DNA from: Escherichia coli
GTDB taxonomy: Bacteria > Pseudomonadota > Gammaproteobacteria > Enterobacterales > Enterobacteriaceae
Length of the DNA: 64,000 nucleotides
Strand: one strand, 5' to 3'
Assembly (NCBI RefSeq): GCF_002854065.1
Contig: NZ_CP024147.1
Within the stretch, counting starts at the first letter, position 1. Each line of letters starts with the position of its first letter. The notes below the pieces were generated by a model. That model was not told where the DNA came from. It did not search any database and worked only from the letters and a program-made list of their open reading frames with translations. Made by a program: the position numbers and the translations under genes. Positions 51,909-57,150 of the stretch are shown here, piece by piece.

Positions 51909-52667
51909 TTACACATCAAGATAACTACCCAACCGATAACCACGCTCAGCAATTGCATATTTCAACGACGCTGATGTCAGCACTTCCAGCTCCGTTAACC
52001 GTGGGAAACAGTAAGCACTCTGGCGAATCGTATTATCGACAAACGCCGGATGGCACATGACTTCCAGCGAGCGTTCCCCGCGATGGCTGGAATCATCAAG
52101 CACTTGCAGGAACAGTGCCTCGCTAATCTCTTCACCATAAAACGCGCTACTGAATCCGTGCGAACTGCGCAGATTAGCCGGTAAATCACCAGCGTTAGAT
52201 AGCGGCTGACGGTCGATGCGCAACGCAATCCCCTCTTCAGCCGCAAACCTGGCAACAATAGGGACAATCTGCGGGAACATATGCACATGATGATGGCTAT
52301 CAAGATGCGTAGGTTTGCGTCCAAATAGCTCAATGAAACGCAAATACTGACTGGCAAGCTCCTGAGTAATTTCTTCCAGCGGTAAAGCATCTTCTTCTGC
52401 CAACTGCCAGATCCATTTTCCCAGCACACCATCGCGGGTTAACCCCGGCATAGCTGTCAGTGGCTTGCCCATAGTAAGGACAAAGTGCATCCCTATGGCC
52501 AGACTCGGTTCATCACGACTCAACTGCACCGCATGGTCAATAGCCTGCCCATTCACCAGCGCCGTCGTCGATGTGACAACCCCATTGCGACAGGCCTCGA
52601 TAATGCCGTAGTTCTGACCTTTGCTTAAGCCAAAATCATCGGCATTAACAATCAGTAAGCGTTCCAT
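51909..52667 (-). CDS. chbG: chitooligosaccharide deacetylase (YdjC family)
   Basis: 252-aa ORF; last gene of chb operon. Confidence 0.85.
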
Positions 52668-52679
52668 AATCAGCCTCGG

Positions 52680-54032
52680 TTAATGTGCTTTTTTAAGCTC
52701 TGCGATGCAGTCGGCAAAATTTGGCAGCCATTTCTCGTGCGCCAGAATCATCTCGCGTGCCAGCAGCTCAGCATCGCGATCGGAATGCACCAACGGACTA
52801 AGGTTTAGCGCCAGTAACACATCGTTAAATTCTCCGCTAAGTGCGGCGTTGCTGGCAGCAATCTCGAAGCCTTTAATGGTGTGAATCAGCCCCATCACTT
52901 TATCATCGAAATGCGTAATGCGCGGATGTGGCGTCGCGCCATCGCGCCCCAGCTTACAGGTCATTTCTACCGCCCAGTCTGCCGGAATATTATCAATATG
53001 CCCATGATGCGGGATATTAACGTAATGTTCTGCTTGCTTGTCGTTGTAGATAGCGTTGATCACTTCGCACGCTGCATCAGAGTAATAAGCCCCACCGCGC
53101 TGTTCCAGTTCTTTCGGCTTAACTTTCAACTCCGGGTTTTTATACAGCTCAAAAAGTTGTTTCTCGACTTTCTGTACTACCTGCGCTCGTGCGCCGCCTT
53201 TGTAGTATTCGCCCATTTCAATAGCCAGCATCTCTTTTTGCTTGAAGTAATAAAGCAAATAAGAACACGGCAACAGATTCAGAGAACGAATTAAGCCTTC
53301 GCTAAATGGCAGATCGAAAATATTTTTAACGCCAGATGCTTTTAACTGCCCGGATGCCACACCATCAAGCAATTCGGCAAAGCGCGACTTGCCATTTACC
53401 AGCACATCCTTAATGAACACCATATGGTTGAGGCCGAAAAGATCGATAGATAAATCATCGCTGTCTTTCAGCATCAGAACACCGCGAATAAACATCTTCA
53501 TGCCGATCGGAATATTACACACGCCGATAAAGCGTTTAAATCCGGTATGACGATAAACGGCTTCAGTGACCATTCCCGCCGGGTTAGTGAAGTTAATCAC
53601 CCATGCATTCGGACAAAGTTCTTCGACATCTTTTACGATGTCAAAAATCACCGGAATGGTACGCAGACCTTTAAACAGACCGCCCGCGCCGTTGGTTTCC
53701 TGACCAAGATAACCATGACTTAATGGAATACGTTCATCCAGTTCGCGCGCCGGTAATTGGCCTACGCGCAGTTGGGTAGTAACGAAATCAGCATCTTTCA
53801 ATGCTTCGCGGCGATCCAGCGTTTTATAAACCTTCATCGGGACGCCAGCGTTATCAATCATCCGTTGGCAGAGATCGAAAATAATATCCAGTTTAGCTTT
53901 GCCACCTTCGACATCCACCAGCCATAATTCGCTGACCGGCAATTCGTGATAACGCTTAATAAATCCTTCCAGTAACTCCGGGGTATAGCTGCTCCCGCCA
54001 CCAATAGTGACGACTTTTAATTTCTGGCTCAT
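52680..54032 (-). CDS. chbF: 6-phospho-beta-glucosidase, GH4 family (450 aa)
   Basis: Track ORF 52680..54101 trimmed to MSQKLKVVTIGGGSSYTPEL... Confidence 0.9.
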   Translation of the reverse strand: MSQKLKVVTIGGGSSYTPELLEGFIKRYHELPVSELWLVDVEGGKAKLDIIFDLCQRMIDNAGVPMKVYKTLDRREALKDADFVTTQLRVGQLPARELDERIPLSHGYLGQETNGAGGLFKGLRTIPVIFDIVKDVEELCPNAWVINFTNPAGMVTEAVYRHTGFKRFIGVCNIPIGMKMFIRGVLMLKDSDDLSIDLFGLNHMVFIKDVLVNGKSRFAELLDGVASGQLKASGVKNIFDLPFSEGLIRSLNLLPCSYLLYYFKQKEMLAIEMGEYYKGGARAQVVQKVEKQLFELYKNPELKVKPKELEQRGGAYYSDAACEVINAIYNDKQAEHYVNIPHHGHIDNIPADWAVEMTCKLGRDGATPHPRITHFDDKVMGLIHTIKGFEIAASNAALSGEFNDVLLALNLSPLVHSDRDAELLAREMILAHEKWLPNFADCIAELKKAH

Positions 54033-54135
54033 AATTTCTCCCTTCAGTACAGAATACTGATATCTGGCATATCTGCCCCCCGGACATAAATAACCCAGCA
54101 ACAGGACAGATATGTGAATTGTCAGGTATAACGAC

Positions 54136-54978
54136 TTACTGATTAAATTCAGTCAATTTCTTACGATAGCTCTTAGGCGTAAAGGACGTTAATTTCTTAA
54201 ACGTTTTAATAAACAAACTCGGGCTACTATAACCGGCCTCAAACGCAATATCCGTCACTGAATAGTTGGTCATTTCCAGTTGTTTTTTGGCAAAATTAAT
54301 ACGGATTTCATTAATAATCTGCATTGGCGTTTTGCCATAATATCGTTGAGTCGCTCGCGTCAAATATTCCTGTGATTTGGCTGACAACGTCACCATATTC
54401 TCCAGCGCCGATTCACTAAACTGCTCTTTATCATGCATCTTTTCTACCGTACTTTTCAGCCACTGCGGTACATCATCAATCACCTGTTCTTCGCGGTAAT
54501 GACGTAAACGGTTAATGACATAAAAAGTAACCATCTCAACAAACTCTTCCAGCCCTGTTTCGCGGAAATTCAATGAAGAAATCACTGTTTCCACATAGGT
54601 GAGAAAAGCGTTATTGGTCCGGTATACCTGCGAAGCGACAAAGCAATAAGGCAACAACGGCAGGTAATGCTGCTCAAAAAAGCGTTTACTGATCCCAACG
54701 TTCAATATACGCGTGGCACCAAACTCATAAAAACTTTGATGGTGCGAACCTAACGGAATAAAAACAAAATCGCCCCGTTCCAGTAACACGCGCTTACCGT
54801 TAATCTCCTGGAAATAACGCCCGGTTAATACCAGAGTAAATTCATAATAGTCGTGCTGATGCAGTCCGCTGATACTCTCAGTTTTGTTATAGATAAACAC
54901 ATGGAAGTTTTTGCCATTAAACAACTGCTGTTCTCGGGCAGTGGCAATTTCCGGCGCGTTAATCACTGGCTGCATCAT
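54136..54978 (-). CDS. chbR: AraC-family dual regulator of the chb operon
   Basis: 280-aa ORF. Confidence 0.85.
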
Positions 54979-54985
54979 CGACTCC

Positions 54986-55336
54986 TTATGCCTTCAGTTT
55001 TTCATGAAGCTCAATTAATTCAGTAATCAGTTCACGCGCAAGCATGGACGTCATTAAATGATCCTGAGCGTGGACCAGCACCAGACTCACTTTCATCTTA
55101 CCTTCGCCCGCATCGCCTTCAATCAGTTTCGTCTGTACCAGATGCGCTTCATTCAATGCCATCCGTGACTGATCCATCATGGCTTTTGCTGCGGCAAAAT
55201 CGCCCTGCTTCGCCTGTTTCAGTGCCGCATACGCCAGGCTGCGCGCTTGTCCGGAGTTGATGATAAGCCCCATCACCACTTCTTCCAGCTCTTCAGCTTC
55301 CGTTTGCGTATCGGGAATATTATCGAGATCCATCAT
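54986..55336 (-). CDS. chbA: PTS chitobiose-specific EIIA
   Basis: 116-aa ORF. Confidence 0.9.
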
Positions 55337-55386
55337 ACATCGTTCCTCTCTATTCTTACCGGCACGATTACCCGTACCGGCATCGA

Positions 55387-56745
55387 TTAAAATTTCAGGG
55401 CGTTAGCGATATCTTCTTCGCTCTCTTCTTTATCAATCGCGTTTTGTGCTTTGTTAGCCACCACAACAAAGGGCAGATAAATTAACGTTGCGATACCAAG
55501 GTTGAAGAGTGCAACCAGCAATGCGGCGACGCTACCGTTGGTGTTAAAGAAGGCTCCCAGACCGGTTGGCATGGTCCACGGTGCAATATTGGTCACCGGA
55601 GGAATAATGCCCATGTAGTACGCTGCCAGGGTGATTGCCGCCAGAATCGGTTGTACCAGTACAAACGGGATAAACATCACCGGGTTCATGATAATTGGCA
55701 GACCAAACAGAATCGGTTCGTTAATCTGGAAGATGCCGGACGGCAGCGCCAGTTTTGCCACCTGACGATAATCAGCACGGCGAGAGGCGATAAAGATAGC
55801 CAGGATCAGGCCTAAAGTCGCACCACTGCCCCCAAGGAAAATAAAGGAGTCCAGCATCGGCTTGGCCCAGATATGGAAGGTCTTACCGGCTGCCAGCGCC
55901 GCTTCGACGGAACCATATTGCTGATAGGTCGCGATATTTTCCAGCGCCCACGGCGTCATAATGCCGTTGTCCAGTGCGGTCAGCGCCAGCGCGCCATGAA
56001 TACCGAAGAACCAGAGCAGTGGAACAAAGATCACATAGGCCCAGCCCACCACGCTACCCAACGATGCCAGTGGGGTTGAGATGGTATCCATAATGATCTG
56101 ATGGAAGTTGGTGCCCCAGGTATTCAACGCCCAGGCAATAATCCCCATCACGGAAAGAATAATAAAGCCGGGAATTAATGCCGAGAAGGAACGCGATACT
56201 GAAGCAGGTACGCTGTCGGGCAGTTTAATGACCCAATTGCGGCGGACAATAAAGGTAAACATTTCTGCCACCACCAGGCCAATAATAATCCCGGAGATGA
56301 TATTCGCCCCACCTAACCAGTTTGCGCCAACCGCATAGGCCTCACCGACACTATATGGGGTGACGGTCATAAATGCTGCAACGGATAACAACCCAGCCGC
56401 CAGCGCATCGACTTTACGCTCTTCTGCCAGCGCCATGCCAATAAAGAACGGTGCCATTAAAGACATTATCCCTAATGTTCCGTTATATACGTTGCCGCCA
56501 ATACCTTTCAGACCATTAAGTGTTTCAATGGTTGAGGCGTCGAGGCGAATACCTAAGGAATAAAAAAACGACCCCTCCCCAAAGCTTAGAAAAACGTTGT
56601 TAATTAATACAAACATGGCCCCCGCAAGGGTTAACGGCATTAAGCGAATAAAGCCATTTTTGATTGCATTAACGTGTGGCTGCTTTCCTATTTTAACTGC
56701 AAAAGGGAGGAGTACCTTTTCAAGCGATGCAATAACATTACTCAT
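55387..56745 (-). CDS. chbC: PTS chitobiose-specific EIIC
   Basis: 452-aa membrane ORF. Confidence 0.9.
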
Positions 56746-56829
56746 AGAAAAATACCCTTAAAAACCGCAATTTAAATATTGCGGTATTGATTTATGAAAT
56801 AACTCTTTGACGGGAAAATTTAAAATAAA

Positions 56830-57150
56830 TTAATTTGCTGCGGCTTTTTTAATCGCTGCAACCGCAGCCTTAAGCACGCCTAAACCATCGACTTTGCCAT
56901 AAAGCAGCGAGTCAATTACTTCAACCGGTTTGTTGGGTAACAAACGCTGGATTTCGGGCAACATATAAGCAATCTGCGGCCCTAATAACACGACATCGGC
57001 ATTCTGACCTTTTTCACCAGCCAGTGTTTCCGGAAATGCTTCAATAATGACCGGAACTTCATATTTTTCTGCCTGTGCGCGCATTTTTGATACCAGTAAA
57101 GAGGTAGACATGCCCGCAGAACAAAACAGATAAATGTGTTTCTTTTCCAT
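56830..57150 (-). CDS. chbB: PTS chitobiose-specific EIIB
   Basis: 106-aa ORF with N-terminal Cys ([10 protein letters not shown]). Confidence 0.9.

Follow-up and report, generated by a model that had tools for sequence, protein, structure and literature searches.

The chbBCARFG operon on this 64-kb stretch of Escherichia coli DNA (the window) is, with a probability that we put at about 0.93, a wild-type operon in its normal, inducible, non-activated state, its biochemical and regulatory activities all being predictions. It is an ordinary core catabolic operon of E. coli, already known and near-universal in the species, and at the level of sequence its near-identity to the operon of strain K-12 accounts fully for the locus. 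The finding matters little beyond a clean annotation of the operon and its regulatory elements in what is predicted to be the usual chitobiose-inducible, cellobiose-silent configuration, which may be of use as a baseline for later cellobiose selection of the strain or as one data point on chbG allele diversity.

Six intact genes between katE and osmE

The open reading frame (ORF) listing places chbB, chbC, chbA, chbR, chbF, and chbG in sequence on the minus strand at positions 51909-57150 of the window:

56830-57150, minus strand: chbB, PTS enzyme IIB(Chb), 106 aa, Cys10 present (ORF; NCBIfam NF007796, 225.9 bits, cutoff 157; Pfam PTS_IIB match)
55387-56745, minus strand: chbC, PTS enzyme IIC(Chb) permease, 452 aa (ORF; NCBIfam NF007634, 972 bits, cutoff 760)
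54986-55336, minus strand: chbA, PTS enzyme IIA(Chb), 116 aa, His89 present (ORF; NCBIfam NF007768, 240.8 bits, cutoff 148)
54136-54978, minus strand: chbR, AraC-family dual regulator, 280 aa, with a cupin domain and two HTH motifs (ORF; NCBIfam NF007633, 585 bits, cutoff 264; Pfam Cupin_2, HTH_18, HTH_AraC)
52680-54032, minus strand: chbF (celF), GH4 NAD+/Mn2+-dependent 6-phospho-beta-glucosidase, 450 aa (ORF; Pfam Glyco_hydro_4 and Glyco_hydro_4C)
51909-52667, minus strand: chbG, YdjC-family chitooligosaccharide mono-deacetylase, 252 aa (ORF; NCBIfam NF002559, 402 bits, cutoff 227)

Each of the six has an ATG start, a TAA stop, a Shine-Dalgarno-like motif, and no internal stop codon. Five of the products (ChbB, ChbC, ChbA, ChbR, and ChbG) score above the cutoffs of their NCBIfam equivalog models, and ChbF, for which no NCBIfam model exceeded its cutoff, is identified by its Pfam GH4 domains. 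A longer chbF ORF of 473 aa with a TTG start was set aside as a mechanical extension, as a start at the ATG at 54032 agrees both with RefSeq and with K-12.

The window is colinear with K-12 positions 1,765,047-1,828,468, and the locus has the same gene content, order, strand, and katE and osmE flanks as chbBCARFG of K-12 MG1655 (formerly celABCDF-ydjC; b1738-b1733). Pairwise BLASTP against MG1655 gave full-length alignments for the chb proteins, with identities of 100% for ChbB, ChbC, and ChbA, 99.6% for ChbR, 98.7% for ChbF, and 91% for ChbG. Relative to K-12, none of the six ORFs is interrupted by a frameshift, a premature stop, or an insertion sequence (IS), and the sole alignment gap is an in-frame, 3-codon (9-nt) indel in chbG. 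The initial annotation, which had described a complete operon in canonical order on the minus strand, was thus correct in the identities, order, strand, coordinates, and intactness of the genes, as judged from ORFs, BLASTP, and the NCBIfam and Pfam models, and alignment to K-12 turned up no frameshift that would speak against it. Its statement that all six genes are intact stands at the level of ORFs and is qualified by one ChbF substitution, D184G, which has no exact match among complete genomes (see below).

Catalytic and phosphoryl-transfer residues are likewise in place: Cys10 of ChbB, His89 of ChbA, Cys172, His203, and the GGGS motif of ChbF, and D10, D11, H61, H125, H206, and R223 of ChbG. 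For the first three proteins, the roles of these residues follow solved structures.

Among 5426 complete E. coli genomes, 5425 match the chb region, a distribution that reflects homology and not a chance pattern, and in 5389 the match extends over 80% or more of the query. The nearest genome, CUWW06 (NZ_CP182139.1), carries the same chb alleles, and its RefSeq annotation lists the identical six genes with identical boundaries. It differs from the window at four bases over 48500-60700, three of them in the chb region (51863, 53482, and 56095), and has IS1-associated deletions (ydiO-fadK and arpB) that are absent from the window. Scanned against Rfam in its entirety, the window yielded no family within the chb locus.

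Compared with K-12, ChbB is identical at both the protein and the DNA level, ChbC matches at 452 of 452 residues with seven nucleotide differences, all synonymous, and ChbA matches at 116 of 116; the spacer between chbB and chbC is also identical, the control region departs from that of K-12 by two single-nucleotide polymorphisms (SNPs), and ChbR agrees at 279 of 280 residues. The features unlike K-12 are six substitutions in ChbF, the 3' end of chbG, and a short katE-chbG spacer containing a hairpin.

Control region upstream of chbB

The region between osmE and chbB contains the following elements:

57151-57449, minus strand: osmE-chbB intergenic region, comprising the osmE terminator, the chbB promoter/operator region, and the 5' UTR (comparison with K-12)
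57358-57380, minus strand: upstream NagC-like operator CTTAATTATCTTCGCGAATTATT, a quasi-palindrome with a TT-N9-AA core, predicted to bind NagC (pattern match; identical to K-12)
57333-57348, minus strand: CRP/CAP site TGTGAAGAGGGTCATA (9 of 10 consensus half-site positions; identical to K-12)
57286-57327, minus strand: two 19-bp direct repeats (57327-57309 and 57304-57286) in a 23-bp register, putative ChbR sites (pattern)
57269-57264 (span 57244-57269), minus strand: putative -10 element TATACT (pattern match only; identical to K-12)
57266-57244, minus strand: second NagC-like box ACTCCTTTCAGCCACAAAAAAAG, overlapping the putative -10 (pattern match only; identical to K-12)

The repeats, which we presume to be the ChbR sites reported by Plumbridge & Pellegrini 2004, are identical to each other at 15 of 19 positions and are followed by a third AGGTC at 57281. 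The pattern used for the upstream NagC-like operator follows a published operator rule (PMC4288165). The chbB promoter was missed by a consensus promoter scan, as expected of a promoter that depends on an activator and has a poor -35 element. The initial annotation had singled out this interval as the place to look for NagC, ChbR, and CRP sites and for an IS insertion; motifs of all three kinds are present upstream of chbB as pattern matches, and comparison with K-12 reveals no IS element in 57151-57449.

At 299 nt, as against 298 nt in K-12, the region differs at four positions: the two control-region SNPs (57329 and 57315), a third SNP just past the stop codon of osmE, and an extra T in the T-run of the osmE terminator. 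The SNP at 57315 lies within putative ChbR repeat 1, where the A found in K-12 would raise the identity between the repeats to 16 of 19, and that at 57329 lies 2 nt upstream of this repeat, adjoining the CRP site. A 61-mer containing both SNPs is found exactly in 1659 of 5414 genomes (about 31%), O157:H7 among them.

Predicted function and silence toward cellobiose

If the operon works as its K-12 counterpart does, ChbB, ChbC, and ChbA would form a PTS permease that imports and phosphorylates N,N'-diacetylchitobiose, ChbG would strip a single acetyl group from this phosphorylated sugar, and ChbF, with NAD+ and Mn2+, would split the ChbG product into GlcN-6-P and GlcNAc. When chitosugar is absent, ChbR would repress together with NagC, and in the presence of inducer it would activate together with cAMP-CRP. 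In the induced mRNA, the chbB-chbC spacer would pair with the small RNA ChiX and destroy it, so that the chitoporin gene chiP is derepressed. Cellobiose is expected to be a poor inducer, leaving the operon silent for this sugar until it is activated by mutation of nagC or chbR or by an IS inserting into the control region. This pathway and its regulation have been described previously (PMC12791066, PMC4098024, PMC7815308, PMC4488073, PMC13267602). Toward chitobiose, the natural substrate, the operon shows no such crypticity (PMC4488073), and the known routes of activation are upstream IS insertion, loss of nagC, and chbR changes that allow induction by cellobiose (PMC13267602, PMC4488073). The initial description of an operon cryptic for cellobiose and activatable by IS insertion or chbR changes agrees with this literature.

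No clearly activating change is visible in the window. IS- or mutation-activated Cel+ alleles involve this same locus and these same genes, and in the window neither the control region nor any chb gene contains an IS; nagC, the other locus deciding cellobiose crypticity, lies outside the 64 kb. The IS1 that the initial annotation had mentioned alongside the operon is real (19263-20030) and is the only IS in the window, but it interrupts fadK, 37 kb away, and has no specific bearing on chb. In one environmental isolate, NZ_OZ197100.1, chbR has an IS5 at its 3' end.

The single difference in ChbR, A197T, lies close to where the C-terminal, AraC-type DNA-binding region begins (the Pfam HTH_18 match starts at residue 202). 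The chbR 61-mer encoding Thr197 occurs exactly in 3758 of 5403 complete E. coli genomes, so that the minority allele is that of K-12; as the species-majority allele, A197T is unlikely to be an activating change. One could nevertheless imagine an operon that already responds to cellobiose in this strain, the SNPs at 57329 and 57315 combining with Thr197 to give a Cel+ or easily activated phenotype. One SNP falls inside a putative ChbR repeat and the other beside the CRP site, ChbR departs from the cryptic K-12 reference close to its DNA-binding region, and some natural E. coli isolates reportedly use cellobiose, according to work by Hall in the 1980s. We regard this as extremely improbable, since both features are common standing variation, at the frequencies given above, the control region is free of IS elements, and the routes in the literature are those of upstream IS insertion, nagC loss, and chbR changes that make cellobiose an inducer (PMC13267602, PMC4488073). 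A literature search gave nothing useful on Cel+ ChbR substitutions, chbG allele diversity, or natural Cel+ isolates.

ChiX decoy site and other spacers

Two elements lie in the spacer between chbB and chbC:

56794-56814, minus strand: ChiX small RNA decoy site, CCCGUCAAAGAG (56814-56803), then a 2-nt mismatch and AUUUCAU (complementarity)
56764-56785, minus strand: 8-bp hairpin ACCGCAAU/AUUGCGGU with a trailing U5, downstream of the ChiX site and ahead of the chbC start (fold z = -2.1)

Twelve nucleotides of the decoy site are perfectly complementary to nt 47-58 of K-12 chiX, with 7 bp more beyond them, and the predicted duplex (-36.1 kcal/mol) compares with -18.0 +/- 3.8 kcal/mol in shuffled sequences, none of 1000 being as stable. 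The decoy function itself is documented (PMC4098024, PMC7815308). In the chbR-chbF spacer, the fold is not significant (z = -1.5), and we therefore claim no element there.

A rare substitution in ChbF

ChbF is identical to its K-12 counterpart at 444 of 450 residues, the differences being P46A, L68V, D184G, I212V, S234G, and Q345H, and the alignment indicates that it keeps the GGGSSYTP motif, Cys172, and His203. As for D184G, which the initial annotation had missed, none of 5411 complete E. coli genomes contains an exact copy of the Gly184-encoding 61-mer around window position 53482, and CUWW06, the nearest relative, has Asp184 and differs at precisely this base. An Asp-to-Gly change 12 residues past the Mn2+ ligand Cys172, in a stretch that is expected to be helical in GH4 enzymes, might destabilize the enzyme, in which case the operon would be whole as a set of ORFs and functionally impaired, with poor or no growth on chitobiose. 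We consider such impairment very improbable: residue 184 is neither catalytic nor a ligand, the position is unconserved in aligned GH4 enzymes (Lys in that of G. stearothermophilus, 1S6Y and 5C3M; Ala in T. maritima BglT, 1UP6), and the lone base difference at 53482 could be a sequencing or assembly error. That D184G alters substrate use is improbable as well, even when taken together with the proposal of distinct ChbG variants discussed next, and a functional wild-type operon remains our preferred reading.

Mosaicism at the 3' end of chbG and in the spacer to katE

ChbG is the most divergent of the six proteins, with 252 aa as against 249 aa in K-12 and the 3-residue, in-frame difference noted above. 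It aligns without gaps to ChbG of K. pneumoniae (7VI8), a YdjC-family Zn2+ deacetylase of the same 252-aa length with which it shares all active-site residues, S217 included (residue list from PMC9402603); this orthologue from another species differs from the window's ChbG in a variable segment at about residues 150-170. The final ~125 codons are 18% diverged from K-12 at the DNA level, and the corresponding 3' segment of O157:H7 chbG is 99.5% identical to that of the window. In the species, the 3' ~40% of the gene exists as reshuffled, deeply divergent haplotypes in 252-aa and 249-aa forms, with a dS of about 0.65 and a dN/dS of about 0.13. It is conceivable that these haplotypes are functionally distinct deacetylases under balancing selection and not neutral recombination debris, with variants that could diverge, for instance, in their specificity for chitooligosaccharides or in how the ChbR inducer is produced; this and the altered substrate use of ChbF jointly receive the low credence stated above.

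A deep recombination mosaic, overlooked in the initial annotation, spans the chbG 3' end and the adjoining spacer. The spacer, between the convergent katE and chbG genes, is 46 nt long here, as against 257 nt in K-12, and contains one structured element:

51871-51898, no strand assigned: hairpin AAGGTCACGTCCCCTGGGGAGTGACCTT, in the 46-nt spacer

In the longer K-12 spacer, we recognized what we take to be REP-type palindromic repeats. The hairpin in the window, with a predicted folding energy of -29.2 kcal/mol and z-scores of -4.2 on the strand of chbG and -3.4 on that of katE, is likely a bidirectional terminator or stabilizer.

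An intact chb operon

The chitobiose PTS operon lies between katE and osmE, where an ORF listing gave six uninterrupted open reading frames on the minus strand at 51909-57150, listed here with the identity of each product to that of E. coli K-12 MG1655.

Open reading frames of the chb operon
56830-57150, minus strand, chbB; 106/106 residues identical
55387-56745, minus strand, chbC; 452/452 identical
54986-55336, minus strand, chbA; 116/116 identical
54136-54978, minus strand, chbR; 279/280, with A197T
52680-54032, minus strand, chbF (start ATG at 54032); 444/450
51909-52667, minus strand, chbG; 229/252, with a 3-residue in-frame difference

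The coordinates, gene order and strand of the initial annotation are exact, since these reading frames coincide in genes and boundaries with the RefSeq annotation of CUWW06, the nearest complete E. coli genome (NZ_CP182139.1), and with that of K-12. Its claim of intactness also holds: all six genes are full-length, and comparison with K-12 revealed no frameshift or premature stop in any of them. Each has an ATG, a TAA and a Shine-Dalgarno-like motif, and the gaps from chbB to chbG are 84, 50, 7, 103 and 12 nt. A 473-aa version of chbF starting at TTG was rejected as a mechanical extension. CUWW06 differs from window positions 48500-60700 at 4 sites. The window as a whole is E. coli chromosome, colinear with K-12 1,765,047-1,828,468 except where 768 bp are inserted and where a single intergenic spacer has been replaced.

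NCBIfam equivalog scores for ChbB, ChbC, ChbA, ChbR and ChbG are well over the curated cutoffs. ChbF contains both Pfam GH4 domains and, in a GH4 alignment, retains the GGGS nucleotide-binding motif, Cys172 and His203. ChbG retains D10, D11, H61, H125, H206, S217 and R223, which are the Zn2+ and catalytic residues known from the structure of Klebsiella pneumoniae ChbG (PMC9402603). Because the window ChbG aligns without gaps to the 252-aa K. pneumoniae protein, the deletion belongs to the 249-aa K-12 ChbG. ChbR Thr197 is ordinary standing variation, its 61-mer having an exact match in 3758 of 5403 genomes, and it is K-12 that has the minority type at this residue.

A 6.2-kb chb query matched 5425 of 5426 complete E. 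coli genomes, with at least 80% of the query covered in 5389, so the locus is part of the core genome. The initial observation is confirmed and its interpretation supported, as a correct but ordinary finding at an already known locus.

From the literature, we infer that ChbBCA would import and phosphorylate diacetylchitobiose, ChbG would mono-deacetylate the phosphorylated product, and ChbF, a GH4 enzyme, would cleave it to GlcN-6-P and GlcNAc, as described in PMC12791066 with reference to Walter et al. 2021. Repression would be exerted by ChbR with NagC and activation by ChbR with CAP, and the induced chb mRNA would titrate the small RNA ChiX.

The osmE-chbB control region

Cellobiose does not induce the operon, and cellobiose-using mutants arise through upstream IS insertions or through nagC or chbR mutations (PMC4488073, PMC13267602). 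No upstream IS insertion is present in the window, and the one ChbR difference from K-12, A197T, is unlikely to be activating, being the majority allele in the species; nagC lies outside the window. The 299-nt osmE-chbB intergenic region (57151-57449), which the initial annotation had singled out for inspection, carries no IS or other insertion relative to K-12, and pattern matching located the following motifs.

Motifs upstream of chbB
57380-57358, minus strand, upstream NagC-like quasi-palindrome with the TT-N9-AA operator core (PMC4288165)
57348-57333, minus strand, CRP site, 9/10 consensus positions
57327-57309 and 57304-57286, minus strand, two 19-bp direct repeats in a 23-bp register
57269-57264, minus strand, TATACT, candidate -10 element
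57266-57244, minus strand, second NagC-like box, overlapping TATACT

This layout fits the control by three factors, NagC, ChbR and CAP, that has been published for the operon (see the summaries in PMC12791066 and PMC4098024). The region differs from K-12 by two SNPs, one inside repeat 1 (57315) and one 2 nt upstream of it (57329). The repeats are presumably the ChbR sites reported by Plumbridge & Pellegrini 2004, and the operator limits given here are likewise putative. The SNP pair is ordinary standing variation: a 61-mer spanning both is found exactly in 1659 of 5414 complete genomes, O157:H7 among them. On the osmE side, one SNP past the stop codon and one additional T in the osmE terminator separate the window from K-12.

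A ChiX decoy between chbB and chbC

The 84-nt chbB-chbC spacer, which does not differ from K-12, contains CCCGUCAAAGAG at 56814-56803, complementary to ChiX throughout, with 7 further pairs beyond a 2-nt mismatch. The predicted duplex has an energy of -36.1 kcal/mol, against -18.0 +/- 3.8 for shuffled sequences, none of which (0/1000) was as stable. This sequence is the documented trap through which chb mRNA destroys ChiX and derepresses the chitoporin gene chiP (PMC4098024, PMC7815308). The decoy was absent from the initial annotation. Just downstream of the pairing site, and 18 nt ahead of the chbC start, is a terminator-like hairpin on the sense strand (56764-56785; 8 bp, then U5), identical in K-12.

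Variation in chbF and chbG

The only difference from CUWW06 in chbF is GAC to GGC at 53482, giving D184G, a change missing from the initial annotation. The 61-mer around this codon has no exact match among 5411 complete E. coli genomes, and the change, if not a sequencing error, is a private mutation. Loss of ChbF function is unlikely, since residue 184 varies across GH4 enzymes (Lys in 1S6Y from Geobacillus stearothermophilus, Ala in 1UP6 from Thermotoga maritima). A single-base difference from CUWW06 at 56095, in chbC codon 217, is synonymous.

Differences from K-12 cluster in a block with sharp limits, 51903-~52290 (71 in ~390 nt); with the katE-chbG spacer it spans 51863-52290, takes in ~40% of chbG at its 3' end and reaches 18% nucleotide divergence. 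Within it are an in-frame indel of 9 nt and a spacer of 46 nt that forms a hairpin, where the K-12 spacer has 257 nt; for the chbG block, dS is 0.65 and dN/dS 0.13 against K-12. At least four identity classes of the block can be distinguished among 5,423 genomes (498 at >=99%, 1219 at 95-99%, 1627 at 90-95%, 2079 at 80-90%), and in a six-strain alignment its sub-blocks, including the indel and the alternative spacers, are reshuffled among strains. These two patterns mark the block as a recombination mosaic of old haplotypes, under purifying selection and not decaying. A smaller patch in chbF (53203-53402), with 18 differences from K-12 in 200 nt compared with 0-4 per 100 nt in the rest of the gene, probably marks a further recombination tract. 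A functional difference due to the chbG haplotypes or to D184G is very improbable, and would be of modest interest even if real.

A strong hairpin is predicted for the 46-nt spacer (z = -4.2) and probably serves both convergent genes, katE and chbG. Neither mosaic nor hairpin had been noted initially. The base right after the katE stop (51863) also differs from CUWW06; it is T in the window and A in the three short-spacer strains that were aligned.

IS elements and other features

The initial annotation had recorded the operon's integrity with an eye to an IS1 elsewhere in the window. The element is present (19263-20030, 768 bp, 100% identical to copies annotated as IS1B family in CUWW06), but it lies 37 kb from chb and has no effect on it. 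Its insertion point, in fadK, follows K-12 nt 1,784,305 (near codon 443 of 566); 9 bp of the target are duplicated, and fadK is therefore disrupted. In CUWW06, ydiO-fadK and arpB are deleted instead, each deletion being flanked by IS1, whereas the window retains both. IS activity inside the chb locus does occur in nature: in an environmental E. coli (NZ_OZ197100.1), chbF and chbR are separated by an IS5-family element (3220-4188) that truncates the chbR 3' end, leaving a CDS of 813 nt versus 843.

Four Rfam matches at gathering score are expected in this chromosomal region.

Rfam matches
5326-5433, RprA sRNA
30887-31045, STnc540
34885-35009, pheST leader
58897-58939, ES036 (CssrF)
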